DNA of 58,821 bases from a virus. The notes under the pieces are model-generated. The model was given only the letters and a program-made list of their open reading frames with translations, was not told the DNA's origin and searched no databases. Every line of letters starts with the position of its first letter. Positions within the stretch are counted from its first letter, which is position 1. A program made the position numbers and the translations under genes. The DNA is taken from the IMG/VR virus record IMGVR_UViG_3300037875_000261. The stretch is one strand, 5' to 3'. Below, one piece after another: positions 26,876-42,940 of this stretch.

Positions 26876-29272
26876 CTATGCCTTCTTCTTCGCCGACTTG
26901 AGCGGCGTGAACTTGTGAACGCGGAACGCGCAGCGGCAGTTGACGACCTCGCCAGCGGGCGCGTTCTCGTCATGCGGATACCGCAGCCCGTTCGAGAACT
27001 TGCTCCCGAGCTTCACGCGGGTGCGGTGTACCTTGAGGTGGGAGTCGCGGGTCACGTTGTCCCCGACCGCGAGCCACTCGATCTCGCTCACGACCTCGCT
27101 CGCCTTCATCTGCGTGAAGCGCGCGCCGTTCTGGGCGATGCCCGTCTCGGTGCGAGCGATCGCGTTCGCGCGAGCCTCCTTCGTTCCGAACACTCGACGA
27201 AGATTCTCGGTGAGCTTCGGAAGAGATCGCTGCACCATCTCACTCAGCAGCATCTTCTTGCCGCCCGGAGACGAGAGGCCCTTGAGCAGATTCGATCGAA
27301 CCGTCTTCGCGAGCGTACCGGTCACGCCCTCGGTCAGCGCCACCTGATGCGACGCGAGGAAGTTGACGACCGACGGATCGGTGACGGTGACGAAGTTGCC
27401 GCCGATCGCCCCGAGGTCGCGGGCCGTCTGGCGCAGCGCCTCCTCGAACAGATCGCGAATCACCGCTCGCGTCTTGCGATCGAGGGACTCGGCCCACGTC
27501 TCCTCGTTGAGAAGTAATGCCTCGATGTCGTCTTCGGTCAGGTCCGACGCGAGGATGCGCTTCGTCAATGACAGCCCCGCGTTCTCGCTGTTCTTCGACT
27601 TCGACGCGATCTTGCGCAGCTTCGCGATCTGCGCCTTCTCGAACGCACCCAGCCACGAACTGATGCGCGCGCGCAGCTTCGGGTCGGGCTCTATCGAGAG
27701 CCCGTACGTCAACGCGTTGTCGTCGCCGTCGCCGAGGCGCAGTTGTGCGGACGTCCCGAAGTCCGTCGATGCCGCCAGCGCGGGAGCATGTCGCCCCGGA
27801 CCTTGAGCTTCAACGGCTTCGAGAACATCAAGGCTCGCGGAGATCAGCCGGGTGTCACCGCCCTCTGTAGTATCTTCAGCCTCGATGCCGAGTTCGGCTT
27901 TGGCTTCGTTGTAAGAGACTCCGACACCCTGCGCGGCGATATCCGCCGCGACCTTGAGCTTGTCGCTGCTGTCCTCTTGCAGCGCCTTGACGTTCGACGA
28001 GTCGAAGGTCGCGCGCAGCGTAACCGCTCGCAACTCTCCGAGCTGCGGCGACAGGCGACCGATGAACTTGTGCTGGACGATGTCGATCGTGAGGTCGGCG
28101 AACGCGAGGATCCCGTTCGGGCCGGTCCACATCTCGCGATGGGCCGTCTCGATGTTGTTGTACGTCGCGTCCGTGTACACGCCGATGACCGGAGGCGGCA
28201 CGCCCATCCCCGAGCAGATCGCGTCACGCGTCCACTCGAACATGCTCATGTACTCCATGTCCTTCGGCTTCGTCGTGTTCGGCACGAACTTCGCCTTGCG
28301 ATCGAGCAGCTTGTACCGACCGGCGTCGTCGCTGTTGAACTGTTCGTCGGCCTCGTCTTGTCGACGCTGAAGCTCACCCGACGTCAGGCGCTCGTCGAAG
28401 ATGATGAAGCCGCCGGGGTCGCCGCCGTTGCGCACCGAGCTGTCGAGGTAGCGCATCCCCTGGAAGTACAGGTCGACCTCGCGGAACAGCGCCTTCACGT
28501 CGCCGAGTCCGCGCACCGGGTTGTCGGGATCGTAGTCGCAGAAGTGAACGACCTCGGTGCGATGGAAGACCTCGCTGTACTGGATCGAGTTGCCCTTGCC
28601 GCCGAGCGGGAACCTGAACCACTCGGGCATGCCGAGCTTGTCGACTTTGTGCTCGACCTGATCGCCGCGCACGATCAGGATCTGATCGGGCATATCGGTG
28701 ATGACCATCTCGTCGCGGTTCGACGACACGGGCTCACCGTCGTCGTCCATCAGGAACCAGAACACGTCGCCGTCGAGCAGGAAGTTCGTCGCGTGCGCGC
28801 GCCAGAACTCCGCCTCGGTCTGCATCGGGTTCGGGTCCGCCAGCAGTTCGAGGATCGGGTGATCGTCGAGCGCCTCGATGTCCTTGTCGAGCGGGTCGCC
28901 TGGGAAGAGCTTGAATTCAAGCTGGCCGAACCCCGCGCGCTTCGCCTTCGCGCAGGCCCGGATCCAGACGTTCTCCTCGAACGGCTTCTCGGCCTTCTCC
29001 TTGTCGCCCAGCGAGTTGCGGATCGCGAAGCCGATGCCCGAGTCGAAGAACCCAGTCTCCCCGCCGTTCAGCATCGTCGTGTCGTATCGACCGGGGCCGT
29101 TCTTTCTGAACAGCGCGTTCCCGTCGTTGTCGAAGAAGCGGGGCGCGACGAGCCCCCCGCCGTTGCCGCCGCCAGCGTCGATCAGCTTCGCCTTGAGCCC
29201 ACCGGGGGCCGGTCCCCTCTTCGGGACGCTCGCACGGTTCCATCGCTTGCGATTGGTACTGACCACGAACAA
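26876..29272 (-). CDS. portal protein fused to a Mu F / SPP1 gp7-like head morphogenesis domain (798 aa)
   Basis: Portal signature ILELLADPNPMQTEAEFW...LLDGDVFWFL. The C-terminal part GDNVTRDSHLKVHRT...EVVNCRCAF is MuF-like. TTG or GTG start. Confidence 0.8.
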   Translation of the reverse strand: MFVVSTNRKRWNRASVPKRGPAPGGLKAKLIDAGGGNGGGLVAPRFFDNDGNALFRKNGPGRYDTTMLNGGETGFFDSGIGFAIRNSLGDKEKAEKPFEENVWIRACAKAKRAGFGQLEFKLFPGDPLDKDIEALDDHPILELLADPNPMQTEAEFWRAHATNFLLDGDVFWFLMDDDGEPVSSNRDEMVITDMPDQILIVRGDQVEHKVDKLGMPEWFRFPLGGKGNSIQYSEVFHRTEVVHFCDYDPDNPVRGLGDVKALFREVDLYFQGMRYLDSSVRNGGDPGGFIIFDERLTSGELQRRQDEADEQFNSDDAGRYKLLDRKAKFVPNTTKPKDMEYMSMFEWTRDAICSGMGVPPPVIGVYTDATYNNIETAHREMWTGPNGILAFADLTIDIVQHKFIGRLSPQLGELRAVTLRATFDSSNVKALQEDSSDKLKVAADIAAQGVGVSYNEAKAELGIEAEDTTEGGDTRLISASLDVLEAVEAQGPGRHAPALAASTDFGTSAQLRLGDGDDNALTYGLSIEPDPKLRARISSWLGAFEKAQIAKLRKIASKSKNSENAGLSLTKRILASDLTEDDIEALLLNEETWAESLDRKTRAVIRDLFEEALRQTARDLGAIGGNFVTVTDPSVVNFLASHQVALTEGVTGTLAKTVRSNLLKGLSSPGGKKMLLSEMVQRSLPKLTENLRRVFGTKEARANAIARTETGIAQNGARFTQMKASEVVSEIEWLAVGDNVTRDSHLKVHRTRVKLGSKFSNGLRYPHDENAPAGEVVNCRCAFRVHKFTPLKSAKKKA

Positions 29273-31552: not shown

Positions 31553-31597
31553 AGAAGCCCCCGGCCCGGCACTCGCCGAGTCGGGGGCTTCTCTTTC
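31553..31597. terminator. bidirectional intrinsic terminator between convergent genes
   Basis: Perfect 10-bp stem gaagcccccg (31553-31562) / cgggggcttc (31581-31590), then tctttct on the plus strand. Confidence 0.6.
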
Positions 31598-32334
31598 TAT
31601 CCGGCAGTGCGCGCAGCCCAGCCTGTCGCCTTGCGTACGTCCCGCTGCGCCCTCGCGAGCAACTTCTCGACCCGCGACGCCTCCTGCTCGTAGCGCTCGA
31701 CACGCGCGCTCGCGCGGGCCAGCTTCTCGACCCATCGGTCGTGCGTCGACGTCGCCGCCTTCGATGCCGCGACGCGAGCCTTCGCCTTGCGCTTCGTCAC
31801 GCCGGGCGTCGCGCTGTCGCGCAGCTTGCGCATGTCGAGCTTCGGCCAGCCCTTCGCGAGCGCCTTGCGCATCAGGATGCGCATCGTCTGATGCGCCTTG
31901 TCGAACTCGGGGCCGTGCGGCTTCGTGCCGGGGCGCTGCTCGTTGTGGCCCATCTCATGCGCGAACGTGCGGAGCCCGTAGACCTTGAAGGTCGCGTCGC
32001 GCACGGGCTTCTTCCCCGCGAGGTACGCCTTGCCGATCGAGCCGAACTGCGGTCGAGTGATCCAGAGCTGCCGACGCCCGTATGTGCCGTACCCGAGGTT
32101 CCCGCTCTCGCGGGTCATCGGATAGATGCGGGACTCTCTGTCCATCGCCTTCGCGATCGCGCGACACACCGCAACCCCGACGCGTTGATCGTGCGTCAGT
32201 GCGACGTGTGTCCAATCGCGCATCACCGACAGCGACTCGTAGATGTAGCGACCATCTTCGTGACGACCGGCGTACGTCAGTCCTGTCTGATCCTTCTTGC
32301 GTTGCTTCACCGGGTAGGTAATTTTCGCAGTCAT
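31597..32334 (-). CDS. HExxH zinc-metallopeptidase-like protein (245 aa)
   Basis: Frame 31597..32406 trimmed to the ATG at 32334 (MTAKITYPV...). Motif FAHEMGHNE. Basic coiled-coil C-terminus. Leader CACCACCACTTTGACAACACGAAAGAAGAGAGACATG. Confidence 0.55.
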   Translation of the reverse strand: MTAKITYPVKQRKKDQTGLTYAGRHEDGRYIYESLSVMRDWTHVALTHDQRVGVAVCRAIAKAMDRESRIYPMTRESGNLGYGTYGRRQLWITRPQFGSIGKAYLAGKKPVRDATFKVYGLRTFAHEMGHNEQRPGTKPHGPEFDKAHQTMRILMRKALAKGWPKLDMRKLRDSATPGVTKRKAKARVAASKAATSTHDRWVEKLARASARVERYEQEASRVEKLLARAQRDVRKATGWAARTAG

Positions 32335-32404
32335 GTCTCTCTTCTTTCGTGTTGTCAAAGTGGTGGTGCGTCGGGCGAACCGTTTCGCCCGCGCCTCTGA
32401 ACCC

Positions 32405-32413
32405 ATTATAACA
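32405..32413 (-). promoter_or_regulatory. extended -10 promoter element TGTTATAAT
   Basis: The minus strand reads TGTTATAAT (TGnTATAAT consensus) inside the most A/T-rich stretch of the window, about 70 nt upstream of the ATG at 32334. Confidence 0.4.
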
Positions 32414-32650: not shown

Positions 32651-33295
32651 TCACCGCAACGTGTGAGCGCCATCATCGACGTCAGCATAACCCAACCCGG
32701 CGCGCTTCGCATTCGCCCGCATCCCGTCCTTGGCCTTCTCGACTAACTGGCGTACGCGCTCGCGAGTCACGACGCCGATGCAGTCGTCGTGCTTGATCGA
32801 CTCCAGCGTGCGTCCCATCACGATGTGCTCGTACGCCGCGTGCCGATGTCGCGGCTTCACGCCGTAGAACAGGCGGTCGATCATGTCGCGGAACTCGACG
32901 CCGTACGTCGTGTCTTCGAGATCGGCGTCGGGCTGCGCGACCGTCGCGAAGAAGTCGTCGCCCTCGTCGTCGCCACGATCGGGCGACGACACGCGCGCGG
33001 TCGCGTGGAACTGGTTGCCGCCCGGTGTCCCCGCCGCGTGTCGAATGAAGTCCCACACGGCACCGCGCACCTGCCAGTACGCGCACGTCGTCCACGCACC
33101 GCGCGCCGGATCCCATCGGTCCTTCGCGGCGATCAGCCCGACGCGACCTGCTTGCAGGAGGTCGTCGCGATCGAAGCAGACCCGATAGCGTTCGTGCAGC
33201 GCCCACGCGAAGAACTGATGCACGACGCGCTTCACGATCCGGTCGTGGTCGATCACGTCGATGTCGTCGGGGCGCGCCGGTCGCTTCGTCTTCAC
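32651..33295 (-). CDS. sigma-70-family RNA polymerase sigma factor with regions 2 and 4 only (214 aa)
   Basis: Region 2 DDLLQAGRVGLIAAKDRWDPARGAWTTCAYWQVRGAVWDFIR. Region 4.2 IGVVTRERVRQLVEKAKDGMR. The GTG start overlaps the terminase stop (GTGA). Confidence 0.8.
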   Translation of the reverse strand: MKTKRPARPDDIDVIDHDRIVKRVVHQFFAWALHERYRVCFDRDDLLQAGRVGLIAAKDRWDPARGAWTTCAYWQVRGAVWDFIRHAAGTPGGNQFHATARVSSPDRGDDEGDDFFATVAQPDADLEDTTYGVEFRDMIDRLFYGVKPRHRHAAYEHIVMGRTLESIKHDDCIGVVTRERVRQLVEKAKDGMRANAKRAGLGYADVDDGAHTLR

Positions 33296-35085
33296 AACGA
33301 TCTCGAACCGGGCAGGTACTTGCCCGTGCGCCTGTTCTTCTTCCACTGGCGCTGGGGCTGCCCGTGCGTCGTCTGCGCGGGTGCGCCCATCGTCGCGAAC
33401 ATGCCGTCGCTGTCGACCTCGCGGCAGAGCAGCATGAACATATCCCAGTCGTCGGGGGACCGCTTGTACCTCGCGCGTATGTCCTCCTTCTTCTCGATCG
33501 TAACCAGCGGGCCGAGCGGACCCATGTCGCGCTTGAACTCCGCCCACGTCGCCTGCTCCCAGACGTCGTGCATCTCCTCGGGCACGCGGAAGTATCCCTC
33601 CTGCAATCCGCGACGGACGACCCAGTGCATCTCGCCGCGCTGGTTCTTGAAGTACACGCCAGCCGTCAGGTCGCTGTACGAGCCCGACGGTCCAGCGCCG
33701 AAGTTCACGTCGTCGATCAGCACGCCACGCGACGCGAGGATGTCGCCGACGCCCACGATGCCCGAGCAGTCGACCGACGTGCGCTGCCCAGGTATCGGTC
33801 GACCGTCCCAGCGATCGGGGAACAGCTCCCCGAGTTCCTTGCCCCATCGAACGAGGCACGACGCGATCCACGTCGCGATCGTCACCTGCATCTCGCGGTC
33901 CTCCCTGTCAGCGCGGAACTCCTCCTTCGCGAGAAGCGTGCCGTCCCATCCGACGCCGCCGACACTCGGGTCGCCCGTCTCGCCGATGTCGAACGCCGCG
34001 CGCGGACCTCGCGGCCCCTCGGGATGGTTGCGGGTGATGAGCGCGGCTTCGAGGAACGCGCGCGGGCAGACCTTGTTCCTGCCGTCGCCGCGTCCGAACT
34101 GCCCGAGGTAGTCCGACAGGAACAGCGGGTCGGTCGGGTCGTACTTCTTCAGCGCGGCCTTGCGCGCTTCGAGCGACGTGATGTAGTACGGGATGTCGTC
34201 GAAGACCTCGTCGGCGGGGACCGGGTCGGGGAACATCTCCTCGGGGAACAGCGACAGCTTGATCGAGTGCCACTCGCTCCCCGGCTTGCACGCTCGAACG
34301 CTCCAGTGATCCTCGTCCATGCCCCTGAACGGGTTCATCACGGCGAGCACCTTGACGTTGCTCTTCGCGATCATGCCTTCGAGCATGCGCATAGATTCGT
34401 CGGGCACGCTCTCGGCCTCCTCGATCACAAGGAACAGCTCGCGGTCGCCCTTCACGTTGTCCATCGCCTCGATCCATTCGAGGTCTTCTTCGCTGAAGTC
34501 TTCGGCGTCCGCGTCACCGGGTACGACGAGCCCGCCGTGTCGACCCTTCATGAACTTCGGATTGTTCGACGCGATGCTGACGATCTTGTGCTCGTCGTCG
34601 AGACGCAGCGCGCGCATCGTGATCGTGTCCTTCCCCGTGACGCCTTGCAGGTGCGTGCTATCGGCTGCACCGCGCAACGTCCTCCAAGTCTCCGCGAGCG
34701 TGATGTCGCGCACCTGATCGAGCGTCGGGGCCGTGACGAGGATCGTCGACGGGCGCGTGTAGAAGAACGTCGGGATCGCGACAGCTCCCGCCGCGTGCGA
34801 CTTCGACGTACCGCGCGCACCGCGAACGATCGTGAGCTTGTTCGCGAAGACGCTGTTGATGATCGCGCGCTCGCCTTCCCATAGCGTGATGTTGCCCGTG
34901 CGCGCGTGCTTGTGCCCGAGATGCTCCTTCGCGAACTCAAGCTCGCGGCCCTGGTATTCCGTGTACCAGATCCGCTCGGGGTCTTCAGTCCTCCGCGCCG
35001 GTTCCAGCAGCTTCGGTATCCGCGAGCGTAAGGCGTCCCCCCATGCACTCTCGATCAATCTCGACGATCCCGCGCTCTGCGTCAT
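33292..35085 (-). CDS. terL: terminase large subunit (597 aa)
   Basis: Walker A-like GARGTSKS, Walker B-like LFLVIEEAE, and a C-terminal nuclease-sized domain. Position lies upstream of the portal block. Confidence 0.8.
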   Translation of the reverse strand: MTQSAGSSRLIESAWGDALRSRIPKLLEPARRTEDPERIWYTEYQGRELEFAKEHLGHKHARTGNITLWEGERAIINSVFANKLTIVRGARGTSKSHAAGAVAIPTFFYTRPSTILVTAPTLDQVRDITLAETWRTLRGAADSTHLQGVTGKDTITMRALRLDDEHKIVSIASNNPKFMKGRHGGLVVPGDADAEDFSEEDLEWIEAMDNVKGDRELFLVIEEAESVPDESMRMLEGMIAKSNVKVLAVMNPFRGMDEDHWSVRACKPGSEWHSIKLSLFPEEMFPDPVPADEVFDDIPYYITSLEARKAALKKYDPTDPLFLSDYLGQFGRGDGRNKVCPRAFLEAALITRNHPEGPRGPRAAFDIGETGDPSVGGVGWDGTLLAKEEFRADREDREMQVTIATWIASCLVRWGKELGELFPDRWDGRPIPGQRTSVDCSGIVGVGDILASRGVLIDDVNFGAGPSGSYSDLTAGVYFKNQRGEMHWVVRRGLQEGYFRVPEEMHDVWEQATWAEFKRDMGPLGPLVTIEKKEDIRARYKRSPDDWDMFMLLCREVDSDGMFATMGAPAQTTHGQPQRQWKKNRRTGKYLPGSRSL

Positions 35086-35935
35086 CTCCGTATACCCTCA
35101 GTAGAACGCCGATCATACGGCGGAACATCGCGCCCACCTGAGCGGTCGTCATCGTTTCGTGCCCGCGAATCTGAATCGACCAGAACTTCTCAACGCCCTG
35201 CTGGAATCGAGTCACCGTATCGACCAGCCGATCCATCGACCGATCGTGATCGAGCCCGCGTTGCAGCAGCGTGTCGAGTTCCTTCTCGATCTCCTTCGCA
35301 CCGCTGTCGAGGTACGCCGCGCTCACTAGCTCGCGCACCTTCCCGGCCACGGCCTCGCGCCAGTCGATCGTGTCGTTCTCGTCCATGCGCTGCATCGCCT
35401 TCTGGACGACGACGTCGAGCGTCGCGAGCCCGCGTCGCAGGTTGACGAGTTCGTCGTCGTCGAGCGCGGCCTCGTACGCCACGCCGACGCGCTCGCCCAT
35501 CGAGCGCCCCCATCTCGAATCGCCGTCATGCTGCGCGGGCTTCTGCCCCTTCGCTGCGACGCCGCCGTGGTAGTAACAGACGCCGCCCCTCGGCCCAGCC
35601 GGTCGACGGCAGCGCCCCGGCGTGCCGTCCTTCATCTTCGTCTGCTTCGAGTTCGCGGTGCAGCGCCCGTATGTGTACTGACGTACGATCGGCGACTCGT
35701 CGTACTCGCGAACGAAGCGCGGGTCGGTCGGCTTCTCGGGGATCGCGATGCCCGCGTCGGCAGCGGCCTCCTTGAGCTGACGCTTGCGACGCGCGGTCGT
35801 GCTGCCGCCCGCGTTCTTCTTCTTCGGCGTCGGGATCGTCTTCTGCTTCTTCGCCGCCTTGCGTCTCGCCTTCTTCTTCGGCGCGCGCCCGTTCCCGTTC
35901 GACTCGGGCTGCCCATTCCCGTTCGCGTTGTTCAA
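34985..35935 (-). CDS. candidate terminase small subunit / DNA-binding packaging protein (about 316 aa)
   Basis: Only the C-terminal third of ORF 34985..37444 is used. The proposed TTG at 35935 overlaps the upstream TGA (TTGA). Lys/Arg-rich N-terminus, motif CRRPAGPRGGVCYYHGG, helical C-terminus. Start uncertain. Confidence 0.4.
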   Translation of the reverse strand: MNNANGNGQPESNGNGRAPKKKARRKAAKKQKTIPTPKKKNAGGSTTARRKRQLKEAAADAGIAIPEKPTDPRFVREYDESPIVRQYTYGRCTANSKQTKMKDGTPGRCRRPAGPRGGVCYYHGGVAAKGQKPAQHDGDSRWGRSMGERVGVAYEAALDDDELVNLRRGLATLDVVVQKAMQRMDENDTIDWREAVAGKVRELVSAAYLDSGAKEIEKELDTLLQRGLDHDRSMDRLVDTVTRFQQGVEKFWSIQIRGHETMTTAQVGAMFRRMIGVLLRVYGDDAERGIVEIDRECMGGRLTLADTEAAGTGAED

Positions 35936-36204
35936 CCTAGCCTCACCGATCCGATCAGAGCCGCGAGCACGTCGCTCGGGATATTGAGCGTGCCGTTCTG
36001 CCCGTAGACGAACGAGCACACGGTCAGCCACGAATCGTCGCCGTCGCGCTTCTCGATGCGACCCGCAGCCGGGTGCAGCTTCGGCTTCGGCTGCCCCTCG
36101 CGGGGCGGCTTGTCCCAGTACGCTGCGGAATGAATCACGCGGTGCTGCTCGCCGTTCACGACGAAGCCCGCGATTGATGTCTCTGACCTTGCATGTATTG
36201 CCAT
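35932..36204 (-). CDS. hypothetical protein (90 aa)
   Basis: Complete ORF with an AAGGAGA RBS. Confidence 0.5.
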   Translation of the reverse strand: MAIHARSETSIAGFVVNGEQHRVIHSAAYWDKPPREGQPKPKLHPAAGRIEKRDGDDSWLTVCSFVYGQNGTLNIPSDVLAALIGSVRLG

Positions 36205-36213
36205 CGGTTCTCC

Positions 36214-38523
36214 TTACCAGTCGTTCGCGCTCATGTCGCCCTTGAGGTTTCCAAGCGCGGTGAAGACGACGCCGAACGCTTGCCGATACGTCGCTGCCCC
36301 GTCGGTTCGCACGCCTTGAATGCTCTGACCGCCCGGCGTCGTGTCCGTCGCCAGTTCCCACGGGTCGGCGTCGCCCGTCGTCGATCCGTCTGCGTTGCGC
36401 AGCTTGTAGAACGCCCGCCCGTTCTGATCCGTGTGGCTGGCGGCGTTGCCCGTCGCGCCTGACGACGGCAGACCGTTCCGCTCGATCAGCTTGAACAGCC
36501 CGATGATGTCGCCCGATCCGGGCGGCGTGTACAGATCGTCCGTGACCCACATCGTCAGCGACCGCACCTTCGTATCGGATCCCTCGTCCTTCAGGTTCGT
36601 CGTCGTGTTCAGCGTCGGGTCGCCCGTCGGGATCACCAGTTCGGAGAACGACTGCTTGCGCCTCTCCGTGATCGAGTAGCTCGGCGCGTGCTTCCAGTCC
36701 GTGCGCCAGCTCGCGCCGACGCCCGGCTCGCTCGATGCGCCCGACGTGTGCGTCGTGCGCGCGACGTATATCTCGCCGTCTGCGCCCTTCGTGTGCGCGT
36801 TGATCGCGAAGGCCACGCCGCTCGCCCACGCGATCGCGTTGCCCATCCCGTGCTCGTAGTTCCAGTTCAGCGTCCGCATCGCCGGGAGCAGCGACGTGCC
36901 GTCGACCGGGCGACCGTCCGTCACGATGTCCGTCACCTTCGAGCCAGCGATCTCGATCAGCGTCTGGTGCAGATCGGGACCGAGATCGACGAGCGCGTCG
37001 CACTTGCGATTGTTGCCGCGCACGAACCGCACCGGCCCGTTGACGATCAGCGGAACGCGGATGCCCATCTCGTAGCACGACCGCTTGTACCTGCGCTGCC
37101 GACCGGCCTCGCCGTCCGCTCGCGCGTGATCGTGAACCGCCTCCATCGTCGCGCCGAACGTGCGAGCGAAGTCGCCCGCCGTCACAGCGCCGTCGGGATG
37201 GTCGGCGTCGTCGACCTCCGCGCCGTCGCGCATCGAGTCGATGATCTCTTGCGACGTGCCGTTGTCGCTGGTGATGATGAAGATCGTGTTGTCGCGCACC
37301 CCCGACGACATGCCGGTCAGGAACCGACCGAGATGCGTGTCGAACGACTCCAGCATCCCGCCGCTGATTCCCGCGAGCCATGACTCGTCGCTGTTCAGGA
37401 ACTCGGGCGTCGTGACGTCTGCGCGAGGCGCTCCGTCGTACCACGGCGAATGCACCGCGTTAGCCGGGCAGTACATGAAGAACGGCTTCGTCATGTCGCG
37501 CTTGTTCGCGCCGGTCCAGTTGCCCGTCCCCTCGCCGTTGTCGCCGTTGACGTAGTCGATCATCTCGTCGAACGTGCGCTTGATCAGCCACTGCGCCTCG
37601 CCGACGTTCTCCTCGATCACCTTCGTCGAGGTCGTCGTCTCCTTCGTGCATGACGTGTAGTTGTCGTAGCCTGTCGACCGACCCTCGAATACCGGCTGCC
37701 CCGGCTGAATGCCTGGGCTCGGCGAGCCCTTCGGGTTCTGCCACAGCACGAACCCTTTCTCGAACTGACCGACAGCCGTCGAGCCGTCCGTCGTCACGCC
37801 CGTGAAGATGTGCTCCCAGCCCGGCCCCTCGCTGCCGTCGAGCTTGCGCATCACCGTGTCGGGCGAGTCGTTCGTCGTCATCGTGTCGTCGCCCACGCCG
37901 AGGTGCCACTTGCCGAAGATCGACGTCTCGTATCCCTTCGCCTTCATGTGGCGGGCGATGCTGTACTCGTACTTGTGATCGGGGTCGCCGAGGAACTGAC
38001 CGCCCGCGCCGACGACGAGGGACTGGCCGGGAACGATCTTGCCGTCGGCGACCGTGTACTCGACCTGCCCGCCGATCACCCACGTCATGCCCGTACGCGA
38101 CGGGTAGCGTCCCGAGATGAACGACGCGCGCCACGGAGTGCAGACCGGCATCGCTCGCGCCTGCGAGAACACCACGCCCGACGACGCGAGCGAATGGATC
38201 GTCGGCGTGTACGGGTAGACCGCATCCGCCCCGCCGTCCTTGAGGTAGTCGCCCGACGTCCACGCGTTCTCGTCGACGGAGTTCGCGCCGTACCCGTTGC
38301 CGTATGTGTACAGCAGGTCGATGCCGATGTCGTCGAGCACGATCAGCACGACGTTCGGTCGCTCGCGGTTCGCGTCGGGGTACGTCGCGACAGTCGCGCC
38401 AACGCCGAGCGGCTTGGCGGCTGCGACCGTCGCGCCCTCCGCCTGCTGCACTGTCGCCGTCGGCTTCGCCCCCTCCGCGAACGGGAGCGGTGCGGGCGTC
38501 GGCGTCGTCGGTGTCGTGCTCAT
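36214..38523 (-). CDS. sulfatase (alkaline-phosphatase superfamily, Cys-type) with a long C-terminal extension (769 aa)
   Basis: Metal-site start VVLIVLDDIG. Formylglycine motif CTPWRASFISGRYPSRTG (C-x-P-x-R...G). No N-terminal signal peptide is visible. Confidence 0.75.
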   Translation of the reverse strand: MSTTPTTPTPAPLPFAEGAKPTATVQQAEGATVAAAKPLGVGATVATYPDANRERPNVVLIVLDDIGIDLLYTYGNGYGANSVDENAWTSGDYLKDGGADAVYPYTPTIHSLASSGVVFSQARAMPVCTPWRASFISGRYPSRTGMTWVIGGQVEYTVADGKIVPGQSLVVGAGGQFLGDPDHKYEYSIARHMKAKGYETSIFGKWHLGVGDDTMTTNDSPDTVMRKLDGSEGPGWEHIFTGVTTDGSTAVGQFEKGFVLWQNPKGSPSPGIQPGQPVFEGRSTGYDNYTSCTKETTTSTKVIEENVGEAQWLIKRTFDEMIDYVNGDNGEGTGNWTGANKRDMTKPFFMYCPANAVHSPWYDGAPRADVTTPEFLNSDESWLAGISGGMLESFDTHLGRFLTGMSSGVRDNTIFIITSDNGTSQEIIDSMRDGAEVDDADHPDGAVTAGDFARTFGATMEAVHDHARADGEAGRQRRYKRSCYEMGIRVPLIVNGPVRFVRGNNRKCDALVDLGPDLHQTLIEIAGSKVTDIVTDGRPVDGTSLLPAMRTLNWNYEHGMGNAIAWASGVAFAINAHTKGADGEIYVARTTHTSGASSEPGVGASWRTDWKHAPSYSITERRKQSFSELVIPTGDPTLNTTTNLKDEGSDTKVRSLTMWVTDDLYTPPGSGDIIGLFKLIERNGLPSSGATGNAASHTDQNGRAFYKLRNADGSTTGDADPWELATDTTPGGQSIQGVRTDGAATYRQAFGVVFTALGNLKGDMSANDW

Positions 38524-38541
38524 GCGTGCCTTCTCCCCGTG

Positions 38542-39099
38542 CTAGTCATTCGCGACCTCGATCCCGTCTTCGACATCCGATCCCTTTCGCCTCTTGAATC
38601 CCCTGTACTCCATCCACGACCAGAACCCCGCGATCAGCGCCATGCCCACGCCCGATAGAATCTTGCCGAGCATCCCGGCCCACCACGGCTCGTCGGCGTC
38701 GGGCGGGGGGTCGGGACCAATGGGCGCATGCTGAATACGCGAATCGCTGTCGGCGTCGCCGCCGATGGCTCCACCCCCGCGCGTATCATCTTGACTGCCC
38801 CCACCGGCCCCGGTGTGCGCGTCGATCTCGTCGTGCGTCGCTTCCGTGATCACGTCGCGCAGCCATCGCCGCATGACGTCGTGATCGTCCGCGCCCTCGC
38901 CCTCGACCCATCGGCGCAAGCGCGACGGTGCCGAGAACGTGAGCGCACCGCCGACCGTCGTCTGCTCCGTGTCGTACTGACCGGCGCTCGATCCCGCGCG
39001 CGAGATTGTCCCGCCGCCCCTCTCGACGTAGAGCGTGAGCGAAGGCAACGCGCACGCGGTGACGCCGATCAGGAGAAGAACGAGCGCGAGGCGATTCAA
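38542..39099 (-). CDS. lipoprotein with a C-terminal TM segment (u-spanin-like architecture, 185 aa)
   Basis: A TTG start gives (M)NRLALVLLLIGVTAC, a signal plus lipobox. C-terminal TM GMLGKILSGVGMALIAGFWSW. Confidence 0.45.
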   Translation of the reverse strand: MNRLALVLLLIGVTACALPSLTLYVERGGGTISRAGSSAGQYDTEQTTVGGALTFSAPSRLRRWVEGEGADDHDVMRRWLRDVITEATHDEIDAHTGAGGGSQDDTRGGGAIGGDADSDSRIQHAPIGPDPPPDADEPWWAGMLGKILSGVGMALIAGFWSWMEYRGFKRRKGSDVEDGIEVAND

Positions 39100-39101
39100 G
39101 G

Positions 39102-39356
39102 CTACGCCTCGTCCTCGTCGACGGCCACGCGCTCGATCCACTCAGCCGCGCCTTCGTGGTCGTCCCACCCGCCGCCGTGGTCGATGCGATGCACGACGCG
39201 AAAGAGCCAGTCGTACGCGGTCGACCCGCCTGCGTCCATCTGCTCAAGCGTCTCGCCCGACGACTCCTCGATGCGCCCGCGATACGCCTCGACGTACGAC
39301 CAGCGAATCGACGTGACGCCGTGCGAGACGTCGGGCGTGATCTGGAAGGTGTCCAT
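39102..39356 (-). CDS. hypothetical acidic protein (84 aa)
   Basis: Complete ORF. Confidence 0.5.
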   Translation of the reverse strand: MDTFQITPDVSHGVTSIRWSYVEAYRGRIEESSGETLEQMDAGGSTAYDWLFRVVHRIDHGGGWDDHEGAAEWIERVAVDEDEA

Positions 39357-39359
39357 TGT

Positions 39360-39602
39360 CTACATCCCCATCGCGTTCGTCATCAGCCGATCGCGCAGAC
39401 GATCCCGTCTCGCGCGCTGTAGTGCCCCCGGTTCGACGACGGCGTCGAGCGCGAGTCGATACGCCTTCAGGCTCTCGATCGCTTGCGCGCGCTTCTGCCC
39501 GCACTGCGGGCCACGCCGGAACGCGTCCGCGAGTTCCATGCCGTGCGCCATGCCTCGCGCGTACGCGATCTCCTCCCGCGCAGCGGGCGTCGGGTCGCTC
39601 AC
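39360..39602 (-). CDS. hypothetical protein (80 aa)
   Basis: Tail of frame 39360..40172. The GTG start overlaps the upstream TAG (TAGTG). Confidence 0.4.
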   Translation of the reverse strand: MSDPTPAAREEIAYARGMAHGMELADAFRRGPQCGQKRAQAIESLKAYRLALDAVVEPGALQRARRDRLRDRLMTNAMGM

Positions 39603-40021
39603 TAGGTGACGTCCGACACGCCGTTGTCGATCTCGAACGATCCCTGCATCAGTCGGTCCTTCACCGTCGGCGTGGATCCCGAGGTCAGGCCGACCACGTC
39701 GTACACCCCGGCCTCGACGAGCGCGGCCTGAGCGATCTCCGTCGTCGCGTCCGAGATCGTGATCTCGATCAGCCCGAGCGTCGCGTCGCCGCTGATGTCG
39801 ATACCGTCCGAGCCCGCCTGAGCGCCCGCGCCCGCGAGGTCGAAGACCTTCGACGCGTTGTTCGCGTCGAGCCTGAACTCGGCTTCGAGCCCGTTCGCCG
39901 AGTACGGCGTCAGGTCGACCGCGTCGCCGTTCGGGTACTGAAGGGCGAACGTCTTCTTGAACGTATGCCGACCTGGGATCGCATTCGCGCCCGTGAGCGC
40001 AACCTCTGCCGCTGTAGCCAT
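39602..40021 (-). CDS. beta-sandwich-like hypothetical protein (139 aa)
   Basis: Complete ORF with RBS AGAGGAG. It is the first gene after a 173-nt intergenic region. Confidence 0.55.
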   Translation of the reverse strand: MATAAEVALTGANAIPGRHTFKKTFALQYPNGDAVDLTPYSANGLEAEFRLDANNASKVFDLAGAGAQAGSDGIDISGDATLGLIEITISDATTEIAQAALVEAGVYDVVGLTSGSTPTVKDRLMQGSFEIDNGVSDVT

Positions 40022-40077
40022 CGCTATTCTCCTCTGGTGTCAGACGCCCCGTCGCCCGCCCGGAGCCGCGAGAGCCC

Positions 40078-40106
40078 GTTGTACGGCGCGAGGGACGCCG
40101 CTGCAA
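40078..40106 (-). promoter_or_regulatory. sigma-70-like promoter candidate TTGCAG-N17-TACAAC
   Basis: Minus strand: TTGCAG (40106-40101), a 17-nt spacer, then TACAAC (40083-40078). It lies about 55 nt upstream of the ATG at 40021. Confidence 0.35.
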
Positions 40107-40138
40107 GTGCGGCGGCTGGTCGCCCGGCTGGTCGATGC

Positions 40139-40152
40139 CACGCGCGCGCGCG
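40139..40152. repeat. perfect 14-bp palindrome CACGCGCGCGCGTG
   Basis: An alternating CG core, located just upstream of the promoter candidate. Confidence 0.6.
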
Positions 40153-40194
40153 TGAGGAGGAAAAGGATCCAAGAGGTTATAGCGTCACCGGCAC

Positions 40195-42627
40195 CTATTC
40201 GGTCCCCTGCCCCGGCCCCTCGATATGCCCGGCCTCGATCGCCTGCGCGAACTGGATCAGCTCGGCCCCGTTCTTCGGGTGTACCTGCCGGAAGCCCACG
40301 CCGTAGATCGTCTGGGCTGCCTCGTAGAGTTGCGCGTACGCCTGACGATCGCGGCGTGCGATCGCGATGCGCATGGCGAACGCGAACGAGTTGCCGCCCT
40401 GGAACGTCTCGGTGCCGACGTTGTAGTCGGGGAAGCGCGGCGACGTCGAGCCGTCTGGCGTCGGCCCGGTGGCCTCGGTCGGCTGTGGGTCGTACGCCGT
40501 CTCGCCGTCCCACGACGCGACGGCTGCCTGCGAGATGATGCCGAAGCGTTCGCGCCCCTTCGAGTCGACCTCGCCGTCGAGCCACCACGGGCCGTCGGGG
40601 TCGGTCATCGCGAGCATGGTCTTGAAGATCGTGTCGTGGCATGCGTTGACGAGATCGGTGTCGGTCGCGAACGCGCGAGCGAGCCCGCGTAGCCCGTGCT
40701 CACCGATGCGCACCTCGTACGCTTGACAGGCGCGGTGCTCGTTCTTGAATATCTTGTTCGCCTTGGCCGACCATGTGCATGTCGACGTCATCGCGTTGCC
40801 GACGACCTCGACCGCGTTCCGCGCGAAGTCCGCGAGAACGTCGCGGCGATCGTCACCGGGCCGAAGGAGCTGCGCTGCGGTCGCGACCGTGTCCCATAGC
40901 CAGCCGTCCTCGCGTCCCATCTGCGCTCCGGTGGCGGGGTCGGTCGTCGTATGCTCCTGAAGTCGAGCGAGTCGACCGTGCGGGTGGCCGTTCGTCCAGA
41001 GCGTGCCGCTGAACGCGTGCTCGATCAGCATGTCGATCGACGCTGCGTCGCCCGTCAGCCACGCGAGTTGCGCGCACTCGTTCGTGAATCGTCGGTCGTG
41101 CTGCCGGTCGTAGCTCTTGAACTTCTGGCCGTCGGGCATCGACCGATACGCCCCATCATCGTCGCCCTTCTCGCCGCCCGACAACTCGATCGCGATCTCG
41201 CTGTCCATTCCCGCTGACGTGATCGGGTTGCCGTCGTCGTCGACGTACAGGTCGCACTGCCGGTCGGCCTTCATGCGTTGCTTCAGACACGCGAGCTTGT
41301 AGCCGACGTGCGAGTCGAACCAGTCGGTGAAGTAGATGCCCTCGCCTCCGGTACCGCCGCCGTACTTCGGGCCGTACGGGTGAACGCCGCCAGCCTCGTC
41401 GGTCGTGATCGGGTACGCGTCGGCGAAGCCCGACGAGAGCACCGAGGAGAAGCGCGCGAGGTCAGCGCCGACGTTCGTCTGCACCGAGCCGATCGGCAGG
41501 CGGAACCCTTGCGCGAAGTACGCGTTCGTCGCGGTCCACGTCCACGACGCCGACTGGTTCTGGTCCTCGTTGTCGAGTACGTCGACTGTGTCGGGCTGCA
41601 CGGCGCAGAACGTCGGCAAGTTCGACGACTCGTCGTGGCCGTGTATCAGGGTGAAGCGACGAATGATCTGCGCGCCGGGCGGCATAACGGTTCCGGTCGC
41701 GCCGTCGATGATCGCGACGTACCTGACACCGCGCCACGCGATGGGCGACGGAAACTGCGGGGCGAGCGCGAGCCCGTCGGGGGCGATGGGCGACGGAAAC
41801 TGCGCGACGTCCCTGACACCGCGCCACGCGATGGGCGACGGAAACTGCGGGGCGAGCGCGAGCCCGTCGGGGGCGATGATGCTGACCGATACCGAATCGG
41901 CTCCGACTGCGTACCGCTCGATCTCGCCGCCGTCAGTTTGCCTCGATGCGTGTAGCAGGCGCACGACCATCTCGACCGAGCCGCTGCCCGACCACGCTGT
42001 CGTGTAGACCTTCGCGACGATACCGCCGCGCAGCTTGACGGTGTTCAGCATCGTCGCCGTATGCGAGCCGCGCGAGATGACGCGACCGCGCGCCGGGGAG
42101 AACGCGAACTCGTTCGGGCCGATGTGGCGGACGTACGAGGCAGACGACGCGGGGGTTCCAGCGACCGAGCACGCGAAGCGGAACTCGCCGCGCAGCGCCG
42201 ATGCGACGTTCGACGGCAGCCAGAAGCGCGGGCGTATGCCGCCGCGTTCCGCGATGCGCACCTCGTACGCGTCCGACTCGTCGAGGTCGCTGACTGTCCA
42301 GCGCACGACCGACGGCATCCCGTGCGCGTCGAAGACGACGGGCTGGATCTGCGCGAGCTTGTCGCCGACGTAGATGTCGATCAGGTTCTTGTGGAGTTGA
42401 ATGCGTCGGTGCATCGGCACCGGCAGCGTGCCGAAGGACGGGCCGCCGGGTCCGCCGCCGAGGATCGCGGCGACACTCGCCGCGCTGCGTTGCGTGAAGT
42501 TGTCGCCCTCGCCGTGCGGGATCTCGGGCGCGACGTCGCGCCCCGACTCGACGCGCGCGCCCGCGCCTTCCTCGCCTCGCCCGTGCTTATTCCAGAGGCT
42601 TCGTCGTGACGTCGTCGGATTCTGCAT
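40195..42627 (-). CDS. large unknown protein (about 810 aa) with a beta-rich N-terminal half and a helical C-terminal half
   Basis: Frame 40195..42882 trimmed to the ATG at 42627 (MQNPTTSRR...), preceded by GAAGGGCAATCGCATG. An alternative ATG lies at 42414. No family recognised. Confidence 0.55.
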   Translation of the reverse strand: MQNPTTSRRSLWNKHGRGEEGAGARVESGRDVAPEIPHGEGDNFTQRSAASVAAILGGGPGGPSFGTLPVPMHRRIQLHKNLIDIYVGDKLAQIQPVVFDAHGMPSVVRWTVSDLDESDAYEVRIAERGGIRPRFWLPSNVASALRGEFRFACSVAGTPASSASYVRHIGPNEFAFSPARGRVISRGSHTATMLNTVKLRGGIVAKVYTTAWSGSGSVEMVVRLLHASRQTDGGEIERYAVGADSVSVSIIAPDGLALAPQFPSPIAWRGVRDVAQFPSPIAPDGLALAPQFPSPIAWRGVRYVAIIDGATGTVMPPGAQIIRRFTLIHGHDESSNLPTFCAVQPDTVDVLDNEDQNQSASWTWTATNAYFAQGFRLPIGSVQTNVGADLARFSSVLSSGFADAYPITTDEAGGVHPYGPKYGGGTGGEGIYFTDWFDSHVGYKLACLKQRMKADRQCDLYVDDDGNPITSAGMDSEIAIELSGGEKGDDDGAYRSMPDGQKFKSYDRQHDRRFTNECAQLAWLTGDAASIDMLIEHAFSGTLWTNGHPHGRLARLQEHTTTDPATGAQMGREDGWLWDTVATAAQLLRPGDDRRDVLADFARNAVEVVGNAMTSTCTWSAKANKIFKNEHRACQAYEVRIGEHGLRGLARAFATDTDLVNACHDTIFKTMLAMTDPDGPWWLDGEVDSKGRERFGIISQAAVASWDGETAYDPQPTEATGPTPDGSTSPRFPDYNVGTETFQGGNSFAFAMRIAIARRDRQAYAQLYEAAQTIYGVGFRQVHPKNGAELIQFAQAIEAGHIEGPGQGTE
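41722..41878 (-). repeat. in-frame tandem duplication with a 90-nt period
   Basis: 41722-41788 and 41812-41878 are 67/67 identical. The protein reads APDGLALAPQFPSPIAWRGVR twice. Confidence 0.85.
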
Positions 42628-42940
42628 GCGATTGCCCTTCGCTTTTCGGTTTCGTGATGTTGACGGTCGCGGCCCATGTATAGCAGCCGCCGGGGATCGC
42701 ACGACGGTCGACGTGACCGCCATGCCATAGCTTCGAGAGTTCGACCTGAGTGCAGCCGAAGAGGTCGGCGGCTTGTACTGAGGTGAGCGCGCGACCGTCG
42801 TCGCGCATCGCTGCGAGCAGAACGCGCATGCGACGGGTGAGGTTCGCCTCGCGCTGCGCCGGTTGCTGTCGGCTCCAGCCAATCGGCGTGTTGTCCTCGC
42901 CGAAGAGGTTGCCGGTTGACGACGACCCGCTCACGCCCAC
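42587..42940 (-). CDS. HTH-containing small protein (up to 117 aa)
   Basis: ALTSVQAADLFGCTQVELSKL is HTH-like. It has a GTG start and an alternative internal ATG (MRVLLAAM). The 3' end overlaps the next gene by 41 nt. Confidence 0.4.
   Translation of the reverse strand: MGVSGSSSTGNLFGEDNTPIGWSRQQPAQREANLTRRMRVLLAAMRDDGRALTSVQAADLFGCTQVELSKLWHGGHVDRRAIPGGCYTWAATVNITKPKSEGQSHAESDDVTTKPLE

Follow-up and report, generated by a model that had tools for sequence, protein, structure and literature searches.

Sulfatases are textbook enzymes. Those of the S1 family, which include human ARSA, ARSB and GALNS, AtsA from Pseudomonas aeruginosa and the bacterial S1_15, S1_16 and S1_19 carbohydrate sulfatases, have an alkaline-phosphatase-like fold and a C-terminal subdomain that are also found in the phage-encoded protein described here. 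Common to both are the C-x-P-x-R motif, two N-terminal aspartates, the GKWH, H-x-P and D-N-G motifs, and a lysine preceding Y-E-x-G-x-R-V-P. The phage enzyme differs from known S1 sulfatases in its tryptophan at motif position 4, its loop insertions, its disordered N-terminus and its being encoded by a phage; most carbohydrate sulfatases have a signal peptide, whereas the phage enzyme lacks one. In bacteria, cytoplasmic Cys-type sulfatases, such as Pseudomonas AtsA, serve sulfur scavenging, and arylsulfatases are catalytically promiscuous. On the phage side, the known receptor-modifying enzymes include glycosidases, lyases, deacetylases and esterases.

The window, by which is meant the whole 58,821-nucleotide stretch analysed, is the complete, circularly assembled genome of a genuine, uncultured tailed phage (~58.8 kb) with the gene set of a long, non-contractile tail, and the sulfatase gene is resident in it. 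The contig ends overlap exactly by 37 bp, so that it closes on itself, its GC content is uniform along its length, and its genes include those for portal, capsid, tape measure, J-like tail protein, primase, helicase and exonuclease. The earlier note on this DNA had asked whether the segment might be host DNA mis-joined into the contig. Related enzymes do occur in bacterial chromosomes, but both mis-joining and a very recent capture from the host are extremely improbable, given the circular assembly, the uniform GC and the phage genes on either side of the sulfatase. An independent contig (L001) that is 99.98% identical has the same locus, and gene order is also the same in L011, a contig from a distantly related phage, although the proteins are only ~30-35% identical (portal 35%, terminase-like protein 29%). 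Mis-joining was discarded on the basis of the end overlap, the L001 copy and the L011 synteny. The identical copy P0001 aside, no homologue among 1.84 billion representative proteins scores above 131 bits. A megablast search of positions 30-46 kb against 50,697 phage records gave no match, and IMG/VR scans with the sulfatase, P0121 and the portal as queries gave no close relatives. In a GTDB genome scan for host clues, the terminase-like family gave just 21-28% identical matches in unrelated metagenome-assembled genomes (MAGs), so no host is proposed.

The sulfatase gene lies on the minus strand (Table 1); a plus-strand reading of the same interval was discarded because its translation is full of stops. 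The ORF begins with ATG and has a GC3 of 0.90, and a single frame is followed along its entire length in the GC3 frame plot.

Table 1. Features of the sulfatase locus, listed from the highest position in the window to the lowest
Feature	Position	Strand	Basis or remark
Cassette partner 1, 139-aa beta-sandwich protein (phrog_1084)	39602..40021	-	phrog_1084, E 6.7e-9
Third small gene between partner 1 and sulfatase, ~80 aa	~39360-39600	-	GC3 frame plot, L001 gene calls
Two small genes between partner 1 and sulfatase: ~185 aa (38542-39099) and 84 aa (39102-39356)	38542..39356	-	GC3 frame plot, L001 gene calls
Shine-Dalgarno-like GGGGAGAAGG	38529..38538	-	5 nt upstream of the sulfatase ATG at 38523; read directly from the sequence
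Predicted type I (S1, formylglycine-dependent) sulfatase gene, 769 aa	36214..38523	-	Pfam, PDB, AlphaFold, Foldseek, GC3
N-terminal extension, codons 1-48, Ala/Thr/Pro-rich, predicted disordered, no signal peptide	38380..38523	-	pLDDT, hydropathy, alignment
Codons D64-D65, presumed metal-binding aspartates in the VVLIVLDDIG strand	38329..38334	-	Alignments A1, A2
Codons C128-T-P-W-R132, formylglycine core motif with unusual Trp at position 4	38128..38142	-	84 homologues
Cassette partner 2, 90-aa protein	35932..36204	-	Starts 9 nt past the sulfatase stop; own AAGGAG ribosome-binding site
316-aa gene, candidate small terminase by position only	34985..35935	-	GC3 frame plot, L001 gene call
Large-terminase-like gene, at most 597 aa; true start possibly slightly downstream	33292..35085	-	Motifs, position
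Portal protein with MuF-like C-terminal part; anchors the head/packaging module downstream of the cassette	26876..29272	-	phrog_2662, E 2.1e-66

From its sequence and modelled structure, the 769-aa ORF is predicted to encode a type I, formylglycine-dependent hydrolase of sulfate esters that is complete in both structure and catalytic residues. It matches Pfam PF00884 (Sulfatase) over aa 56-515 (E 9.9e-27; 94.5 bits against a cut-off of 25), its PDB sequence matches are all sulfatases (best 6ust, E 1.9e-20), and the best 50 Foldseek matches of its AlphaFold model (pTM 0.82) in the PDB are S1 sulfatases without exception (E 6e-19 to 3e-16). The core motif of type I sulfatases is C/S-x-P/A-x-R with a downstream extension (PMC2459300), and both parts are present as C128-T-P-W-R132-A-S-F-I-S-G-R. 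The earlier note had recognized the metal-binding start and this motif correctly: VVLIVLDDIG runs from aa 58, and CTPWR at aa 128-132 is followed by ASFISGRYP. All ten canonical active-site residues are kept (D64, D65, C128, R132, K205, H207, H358, D420, N421 and K480). D64, D65, D420 and N421, which we take to be the metal ligands by analogy with the ARSA and AtsA structures, are invariant in an alignment of the clade (A1); in a larger alignment of 84 sequences (A2), D64, D420 and N421 are invariant and D65 is at least 90% conserved. Among the 84 homologues, C128 and R132 are likewise invariant and P130 is at least 90% conserved. The conserved sulfate-binding and acid/base set is made up of K205 and H207 in GKWH, H358 in H-x-P, and K480, the lysine before Y-E-x-G. 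No catalytic residue is lost in the alignments, the point by which the earlier note had said that its assignment could fall, and the set is that of a complete Cys-type type I sulfatase. Identity to solved structures is low, however, at 17-21% in the structural comparison, and no subfamily stands out: the solved S1_15, S1_16, S1_19, S1_11 and mammalian enzymes are 14-21% identical when sequence and structure matches are taken together, with similar scores, and the nearest relatives are uncharacterised proteins.

The protein is long for its family, and about 300 extra residues had been placed at its C-terminus. Alignment with relatives of 526-599 aa is instead end to end and takes in the canonical DP(W/F)E motif near the C-terminus, at aa 720, and the AlphaFold model has a C-terminal subdomain composed of strands (624-710) and a terminal helix (740-766). 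The extra length consists of 185 residues inserted at 16 sites, the largest being 554-586 and 593-620, and an N-terminal extension of ~48 aa that is absent or much shorter in relatives. The inserted segments have low AlphaFold confidence and no additional domain is modelled; an extra C-terminal domain was ruled out by the alignment and the model together. Residues 1-48 have pLDDT values below 50 and are modelled as disordered. In a hydropathy test of residues 1-56, no Sec- or Tat-like N-terminus was found, the maximum Kyte-Doolittle mean being 0.92 per 19 aa, and this region has neither a twin-arginine motif nor a hydrophobic core, in agreement with the original reading that a signal peptide is absent.

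By sequence comparison, the window sulfatase belongs to a small, deep clade whose members come from phage-like contigs, at least four or five of them, and from a few bacterial genomes. Its other members are P0121, P0123, P0124, P0125, P0129, P0133, P0134, P0184 and P0189. These uncharacterised proteins align with the window protein from end to end, and share with it the markers G-W-[DE]-H, ~30 residues past GKWH, and Y74; like the window protein, most lack a signal peptide, and several are phage-borne. In BLAST comparisons the window protein shares only 25-30% identity with the other copies; it is 170-240 aa longer than they are, and alone has CTPWR. In a rough NJ tree, the members from phages and those from bacteria are intermixed. 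A metagenome scan with the window sulfatase gave no match, and one with an alignment of P0184, P0133 and P0123 returned only already-known contigs and distant sulfatases.

Tryptophan at the fourth motif position is indeed as atypical as had been proposed, occurring in about 3 of ~240 motif-bearing homologues (~1%), one of which is the identical copy, and Trp131 might impair maturation. The reported lack of a maturase gene was also borne out: a Pfam scan of 50 window ORFs found no FGE (PF03781) or radical-SAM/anSME domain, and the other large window ORFs are replication or structural proteins by PHROGs. Since the phage has no such gene, the sulfatase would need a host FGE. The rarity of the tryptophan, the missing maturase and the many long low-confidence loop insertions could all be accommodated if Cys128 were left unconverted, because of Trp131 or for want of a suitable host maturase, and the protein were an inert remnant or a binding module only. 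This is improbable. Phage copies with no more than 25-30% identity to the window protein all keep the catalytic residues unchanged, which argues for purifying selection on the active site; in addition, another homologue (P0170) has CSPWR, and the gene has the GC3 and codon structure of one that is expressed.

The same tryptophan had led the earlier note to consider phosphonate or phosphodiester hydrolysis. The fold might then be that of a phosphodiesterase or phosphonate-monoester hydrolase that depends on formylglycine, or of an enzyme whose target is a nucleotide-like signal or modified nucleic acid, and a cytoplasmic location near replication and packaging genes would suit such a role, as would the promiscuity of arylsulfatases and a weak secondary Pfam match to the type I phosphodiesterase family (E 0.0028, below the cut-off). 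However, K205 and H207 of GKWH, H358 and K480 are retained as part of a full sulfatase set that includes both sulfate-binding Lys/His pairs, and the PehA model (NF045661 HdlasePehA) scores 18.5 bits against a cut-off of 900. Sulfatases account for every one of the 50 best structural matches, and PADLOC gave no match to defence or anti-defence families. A different chemistry on this fold thus has a low probability, similar to that of an inactive protein, and the phosphonate or phosphodiester proposal was not upheld.

The neighbouring genes had been described as terminase genes lying immediately downstream of the sulfatase and co-transcribed with it. The genes are on one strand, abut or overlap, and have no terminator-like site between them, and the sulfatase is probably transcribed with the late packaging and structural genes. 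The immediate adjacency did not stand, as the 90-aa and 316-aa genes intervene before the 597-aa terminase-like gene. The product of the latter has Walker A (GARGTSKS) and Walker B (LVIEEA) motifs and a third, nuclease-like motif (DIGETGD), along with weak P-loop and Terminase_3 matches; no Pfam or PHROG terminase model passes, and the best PDB match of its family profile is the large-terminase nuclease domain 8dkr, with an E value of only 0.37. Its homologues occur just upstream of the portal gene in three further contigs (L011, L019 and L020), giving the same position in four contigs with the window. In the same three, homologues of the 316-aa protein, which has no Pfam, PHROG or PDB family match, are directly upstream of the terminase-like gene. 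The window portal is 35-42% identical to the portals of these contigs, and its aa 547-783 correspond to phrog_2468 (head morphogenesis). The genes between the beta-sandwich protein and the sulfatase have no family matches in Pfam, PHROGs or NCBIfam. Pfam, PHROG, NCBIfam and PADLOC searches of the 90-, 316-, 185-, 84- and 895-aa flanking genes, and of the cassette neighbours in L002, L011 and L014, gave nothing informative beyond phrog_1084.

The sulfatase lies at the centre of a small cassette, in which a beta-sandwich protein (phrog_1084) is followed by the sulfatase and then by a small protein of ~90 aa, and this cassette is seen again in phages that are only distantly related. Neither the two conserved partner genes nor the recurrence, with its second position beside tail genes, had been mentioned in the earlier note. 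L002, L011 and L014 each have a homologue of the phrog_1084 partner directly upstream of their sulfatase. A tblastn search of phage records with this partner gave no match. A 90-aa protein occupies the same downstream position in L011, and is 42% identical (E 1.6e-5) to the C-terminal half of a 144-aa protein downstream of the L014 sulfatase; the small downstream proteins of the window, L011 and L014 share an I-E-x-R-x-x-D...W...L-x-x-L motif. The cassette is found at two sites: in the window and L011 it comes shortly before the packaging genes, and in L002 and L014 it directly follows the J-like central tail gene. The L014 tail genes are homologous to those of the window (J is 37% identical over ~1580 aa), yet in L014 the cassette follows J. 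Overall, tail or packaging genes adjoin the cassette in four of the five phage contexts. The exception to this arrangement is L012, where a lone sulfatase copy without partner or N-terminal extension is found among replication genes. Two close relatives of the window phage by terminase and portal, L019 and L020, have no sulfatase, indicating that the gene is accessory in the lineage. The recurrence of the cassette in related phages suggests that these phages handle a sulfated molecule of the host.

It may be that the sulfatase desulfates a host envelope glycan or glycolipid, either as a virion-borne enzyme or as one freed at lysis, and so aids adsorption or escape; this reading is tentative and falls somewhat short of an even chance. 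The enzyme would be cytoplasmic, because it has no signal peptide, and a host FGE would convert Cys128 to formylglycine there, because the phage has no maturase. It could then be carried in the virion by way of the disordered N-terminal extension and the beta-sandwich partner, or be released at lysis, and removal of sulfate from the envelope glycan or glycolipid would improve adsorption or escape. A narrower version, in which the cassette is a virion-borne or capsid- or tail-delivered sulfatase docked through its partner and N-terminus, with desulfation required for adsorption or penetration, is rather unlikely.

Several observations bear on carriage in the virion. The phrog_1084 partner (AlphaFold pLDDT 82.6) finds its best PDB match in one chain from the baseplate/tail model of phage 80alpha (E 1.2e-4; TM 0.50, a weak match), which speaks for it, as do the N-terminal extensions of 24-55 aa on the cassette copies of the sulfatase, which the lone L012 copy does not have. 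Against it are the Ig V-type domains, which come next among the partner's matches and score nearly as high, and the L012 copy itself, which sits in a replication module without the partner. The sulfatase is not fused to any tail domain. Accessory 'moron' genes, too, classically insert behind J or ahead of the terminase, and the position of the cassette is thus no proof of a structural role.

Alternatively, the gene could be a cytoplasmic auxiliary metabolic gene, freeing sulfate from imported or endogenous esters and so relieving sulfur limitation during virion production. A sulfatase without a signal peptide would suit this role, and the bacterial members of the clade also lack signal peptides, two of them adjoining ABC or MFS transporters, an observation that weighs against an envelope role. 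The accessory nature of the gene and the placement of one copy in a replication module point the same way; its absence from L019 and L020, like the possible effect of Trp131 on maturation, also counts against desulfation of the envelope. However, sulfur scavenging leaves unexplained the two conserved small partners and the N-terminal extensions of the cassette copies, Pfam detects no further sulfur-assimilation gene in the window, and most of the phage contexts place the cassette beside tail or packaging genes. Scavenging is accordingly a possible but fairly unlikely role, and we lean towards a late action associated with the virion or with exit from the cell. In either role, dependence on a host maturase would constrain the host range.

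The view that sulfatases are rare in phages was supported by a search with a typical bacterial sulfatase, which matched 33 of 50,697 phage records. Of these, 23 are faecal metagenome contigs without annotation; there are also several WGS records that are bacterial or doubtful, and two Campylobacter phage records (A11a and A18a), which were not counted as cultured-phage carriers because they are UNVERIFIED and unannotated. Essentially no sulfatase was found in isolate phage genomes, and no functional account of a phage-encoded one was found in the literature searched, where mentions were confined to an FGE domain as a DGR target or to bacterial sulfatases and no virion sulfatase is described. 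An FGE has been reported in some Pseudoalteromonas phages (PMC10232697). The sulfatase gene is not a one-off capture, in that a deep clade has been retained with its partners in several divergent phages. The persistence of a clade without signal peptides alongside two partners in such phages, with its active site under selection, suggests that phages put sulfate-ester hydrolysis to a use of their own. Were a sulfated polymer of the envelope the target, the sulfatase would add a new class to the phage receptor-modifying enzymes and offer a handle for finding hosts with sulfated surfaces. Should the virion-borne reading be true, it would be the first 'desulfating' receptor-modifying enzyme of a phage within the literature and databases searched, with hosts among bacteria with sulfated envelopes. 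If the role is instead sulfur scavenging, viral sulfur auxiliary metabolism would be extended to organosulfate esters.

Among viral proteins, the same fold is encoded by giant viruses: BFVD has only four sulfatase-fold matches, from Yasminevirus, Tetraselmis virus 1, Terrestrivirus and Satyrvirus, and none from a phage. These viruses infect eukaryotes, and their proteins are 10-15% identical to the phage enzyme and have an unrelated genomic context. Viral sulfur auxiliary metabolic genes, such as cysH for PAPS reductase, are likewise accessory, look host-derived and occur in only some members of a lineage. They serve assimilation or redox functions, whereas the sulfatase is predicted to hydrolyse sulfate esters and, unlike them, is kept as a three-gene cassette with partners that do not look metabolic. 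Tail-associated depolymerases and deacetylases, namely the tailspike and tail-fibre enzymes, are also encoded by phages, and the sulfatase could similarly modify a host surface glycan; the L002 and L014 copies, directly downstream of the J-like tail gene, recall this arrangement. However, the sulfatase is a separate ORF with small partners, has neither an anchor fusion nor a beta-helix, and in the window precedes the packaging genes, outside the tail module.

The sulfatase gene reads from ATG to TAA over 769 codons on the minus strand; a plus-strand reading of 36214-38523 was dropped, being full of stops. Its third-position GC is 0.90, and a sliding GC3 frame plot holds one frame across the entire open reading frame (ORF) which, in DNA of 65% GC, is strong evidence that it is truly coding. 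The ATG is preceded, 5 nt upstream, by a good Shine-Dalgarno sequence, GGGGAGAAGG. Both motifs quoted in the earlier note are present in the translation: VVLIVLDDIG, beginning at residue 58, and C128-T-P-W-R132, followed by ASFISGRYP.

By all sequence and structure criteria applied, the 769-aa protein belongs to the S1 sulfatase family, as its earlier description as a Cys-type sulfatase had it. It scores 94.5 bits against Pfam Sulfatase PF00884 (cut-off 25), and its matches in a PDB sequence search are sulfatases in 59 cases out of 59. When an AlphaFold model made with 84 homologues as input (pTM 0.82) was compared with the PDB by Foldseek, all of the best 50 matches were S1 formylglycine sulfatases, including human ARSA, ARSB and GALNS, Pseudomonas AtsA, and carrageenan, mucin and chondroitin sulfatases; identity to these 50 is 14-21%, with no S1 subfamily ahead of the others. 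None of the ten type I active-site residues is lost: D64, D65, C128, R132, K205, H207, H358, D420, N421 and K480 are invariant with respect to the nearest relatives, and invariant or at least 90% conserved in the 84-sequence alignment. Phage copies with only 25-30% identity to the window sulfatase (BLAST) likewise retain the complete active site.

The core motif of sulfatases is C-x-P/A-x-R (PMC2459300). Trp at its fourth position is unusual, not unique: T, S or A occurs there in 235 of about 240 motifs among the retrieved homologues, and Trp is found in P0001 (the identical copy), P0170 (CSPWR) and one other match. The residue is thus atypical, as had been remarked, but the phosphonate or phosphodiester chemistry proposed on that basis seems unlikely, since the GKWH Lys/His pair is kept and the PehA model gives only 18.5 bits (cut-off 900). 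Altered chemistry, an inactive protein and an artefact together are left with whatever probability the two roles considered for the enzyme do not take up.

About 300 extra C-terminal residues had also been reported, and no such domain exists. The protein aligns end to end with relatives of 526-599 aa, from the DD strand through the last helix, and the canonical C-terminal DP(W/F)E motif is present at residue 720. The surplus length amounts to 185 residues spread over 16 lineage-specific insertions, of which 554-586 and 593-620 are the largest, and there is also an Ala/Thr/Pro-rich N-terminal extension; in the AlphaFold model the insertions and the extension have pLDDT values below 50 and form no additional folded domain. 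The first reading was probably misled by PF00884, which spans the N-terminal subdomain only. Inspection of the N-terminus found neither a hydrophobic core nor a twin-arginine motif, so the protein bears no sign of export, in line with the signal peptide having been called absent.

The sulfatase is a phage gene. The window encodes a portal (phrog_2662, E 2e-66), a major head protein, a tape measure and a J-like central tail protein, along with a primase, a Dda/RecD-like helicase, a Sak4-like annealing protein, an exonuclease, an ERCC4 nuclease and a ParB-like protein, and almost all phage genes are on the minus strand. Its ends overlap exactly by 37 bp (1-37 = 58785-58821), a circular-assembly signature indicating a complete genome of about 58.8 kb (about 58,784 bp closed). 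The circular ends, the phage genes, the even GC level across the sulfatase and an independent JGI contig (L001, 5.7 kb), 99.98% identical over 34999-40747, all speak against host DNA mis-joined into the contig. No near relatives of this phage were found in 50,697 GenBank phage records or in IMG/VR.

Several other features of the genome deserve mention. An exact 31-nt element, ACCACCACCACCACGAAAGGCAACGACATGA on the minus strand, occurs at 1-37 = 58785-58821, 468-498, 1304-1335 and 3302-3332, in each case ending in the ATG of a different minus-strand gene (starts 58788, 471, 1307 and 3305), and the sequence upstream is unrelated among the four copies. The pattern suggests a common leader and ribosome-binding cassette for a set of post-tail/early-region genes, and the position of the element makes 1307 the probable start of the 498-1445 ORF. 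The C-terminal third of the portal contains a MuF-like stretch of the head-morphogenesis type (phrog_2468, aa 547-783), and the portals of two related contigs, L019 and L020, carry Pfam Phage_portal and Phage_Mu_F. Two ORFs, 24313-25719 and 25610-26872, overlap by 110 nt and match the major-head-protein family phrog_617 over profile positions 48-170 and 150-622, respectively. L020 has two separate genes in their place (421 and 426 aa), with Pfam Phage_capsid only in the second, so the upstream gene is probably scaffold-like and fused to the capsid in some phrog_617 members. A pooled Pfam scan of 40 window ORFs gave a single Zeta_toxin/AAA_33 match (1.4e-17), DUF6011, an ArdA anti-restriction protein (3.5e-4) and a GNAT acetyltransferase (5.4e-4); among the small ORFs, only 3584-4063 has a Walker A motif (GLPGSGKS), and it is probably the Zeta_toxin/AAA_33 P-loop kinase.

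Genes around the sulfatase, in order of minus-strand transcription
Feature	Position	Strand	Remark
895-aa ORF, function unassigned	40195-42882	minus	first in transcription order
phrog_1084 protein, 139 aa	39602-40021	minus	
Three small genes without assignment	~39360-39600, 39102-39356, 38542-39099	minus	
Sulfatase	36214-38523	minus	
90-aa gene	35932-36204	minus	start 9 nt past sulfatase stop
316-aa gene	34985-35935	minus	start overlaps 90-aa gene stop
597-aa gene	33292-35085	minus	
Sigma-70-like gene	32651 to ~33290 (C-terminal part of ORF 32651-33871)	minus	between terminase-like gene and portal region
269-aa gene	31597-32406	minus	
Three genes, 200, 170 and 230 aa, no family matches	29473-31409	plus	between packaging genes and portal
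Portal	26876-29272	minus	

That the sulfatase directly precedes the packaging genes is roughly correct, the 90-aa and 316-aa genes intervening before the terminase-like 597-aa gene; co-transcription with the latter had been claimed and is better regarded as inferred. No terminator-like site was found between the two. The 597-aa protein is likely the large terminase: Walker A/B motifs are present, as is a nuclease-like DxG...D motif, and in L019, L020 and a third contig, L011, genes for its homologues (29-74% identical) are found a short way before the portal gene. The best PDB match of the family profile, a large-terminase nuclease domain, is weak (E 0.37), and no Pfam or PHROGs terminase model passes. 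Elsewhere in this region, the 895-aa ORF directly upstream of the phrog_1084 gene has a strong coding signal (GC3 0.86); Pfam, PHROGs, NCBIfam and PADLOC gave no match to it, and L011 lacks a counterpart. The sigma-70-like gene matches the phrog_351 sigma factor (E 1.7e-10) and, below cut-off, Pfam Sigma70_r2 (E 1.6e-4); L019 also has an ECF-type sigma gene. The plus-strand trio breaks the otherwise almost wholly minus-strand genome, and in L019 and L020, too, homologues of its first gene stand in inverted orientation shortly before the portal.

Among 1.84 billion representative proteins, thousands of sulfatases were matched, only four of them at E <=1e-30 (P0001 included); the best match after P0001 scores 131 bits. 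The nearest relatives of the window sulfatase, which are uncharacterised, group in a small clade with markers such as G-W-[DE]-H some 30 residues past GKWH, and most are without signal peptides. L011 (P0134), a 56.8-kb contig, keeps the window gene order: a phrog_1084-like protein, the sulfatase, a 90-aa protein, a 625-aa protein without assignment, the 316-aa and 597-aa homologues, portal and capsid, the 798-aa portal being 35% identical to that of the window (E 2e-122). The tail module of L014/L015 (P0184) is homologous to that of the window, with counterparts of J (37% identical over about 1580 aa), of the end of the tape measure, of the 715-aa and 224-aa proteins and of the 135-aa protein that follows J; here a phrog_1084-like protein, sulfatase and 144-aa protein come two genes after J. 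In L002, source of the closest relative (P0121), a J-like C-terminus is followed by three small genes, a phrog_1084 protein and the sulfatase. In L012/L013 (P0133) the sulfatase stands alone in a phage-like replication module, with a helicase and a primase-polymerase on either side. Among bacterial members, which are interleaved with phage ones in a rough distance tree, one is on a 3.8-Mb contig, another adjoins LexA, and the gene for P0129 (L017/L018; 152-kb contig) overlaps an ABC transporter operon at its end, with an FGE-domain gene about 3 kb away. This FGE-domain gene (14454-16844) encodes a 778-796 aa protein that joins sigma-70 regions 2 and 4 to an FGE-sulfatase domain.

Conservation of the flanking proteins beside the sulfatase in several of these relatives defines a three-gene unit of beta-sandwich protein, sulfatase and small protein. 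Identity between the L011 90-aa protein and the C-terminal half of the L014 144-aa protein is 42% (E 1.6e-5), and the window 90-aa protein has an I-E-x-R-x-x-D...W...L-x-x-L signature in common with both. The 144-aa protein (L014 11770-12204) contains two copies of a Y-x-I-E-x-R-S-x-D...W...L-S-A-L-L motif of about 50 aa, present once in each 90-aa protein, and is an internal duplication of this module. The cassette occupies two alternative sites in phages with homologous structural genes, and its absence from L019 and L020, whose terminase-like proteins are 38-43% identical to that of the window, makes it accessory. Across 5.8 billion clusters, 17 members of the phrog_1084-like family were found, and the family lacks a Pfam domain. 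AlphaFold models the protein as a beta-sandwich plus a single helix (pLDDT 82.6). The top-ranked PDB match to this model comes from the composite baseplate/tail model of phage 80alpha, of which it is one chain (E 1.2e-4, TM 0.50); that entry includes tail-tube rings as well as baseplate proteins (PMC8718954). Other top matches are phage NF5 baseplate chains and many Ig V-type domains at E ~1e-3, and the modelled fold is no more than a weak pointer to a virion-type protein.

Type I sulfatases need their active-site Cys oxidised to formylglycine, which in bacteria takes place in the cytoplasm via FGE or anSME. No maturase domain was found in the phage ORFs, as the earlier note had stated, so the phage would rely on its host for activation, with Cys128 oxidised in the cytoplasm by a host FGE or anSME. 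Expression would be late, together with the packaging and structural genes. It may be, and we suggest this tentatively, that the enzyme acts on a sulfated glycoconjugate of the envelope, whether in association with the virion or when the cell is lysed. This is favoured by the cassette adjoining tail genes in two phages and heading the packaging/structural block in two others, by the virion-like beta-sandwich fold of the phrog_1084 protein, and by N-terminal extensions of 24-55 aa on the cassette copies, which the lone replication-module copy is without. That the gene is instead a cytoplasmic sulfur-scavenging auxiliary gene seems somewhat less likely; in favour of this reading are bacterial relatives that are without signal peptides and in some cases adjoin transporters, and its accessory status in this phage lineage. 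Both insertion sites are also typical accessory-gene hotspots, so position alone cannot decide between the envelope and scavenging roles.

The rarity of sulfatases in phages, mentioned in the first reading, is borne out: a typical sulfatase query matches only 33 of 50,697 phage records, namely faecal contigs that carry no annotation, WGS records of bacterial or doubtful origin, and two Campylobacter phage records flagged UNVERIFIED. One of the latter, the only two named-isolate records to match, is the unannotated Campylobacter phage A11a (L026; MG065691.1 82518-84776), whose 497-aa Cys-type sulfatase ORF (CTPAR) may be foreign to the phage. The four sulfatase matches in BFVD are all giant viruses, PHROGs has one matching family (phrog_19870, annotated function-unknown), and a literature search found no paper on the function of a phage sulfatase. 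Phage-encoded sulfatases are close to undocumented. The enzyme class itself is not new; the novelty lies in its occurrence within a stable, mobile three-gene phage cassette.
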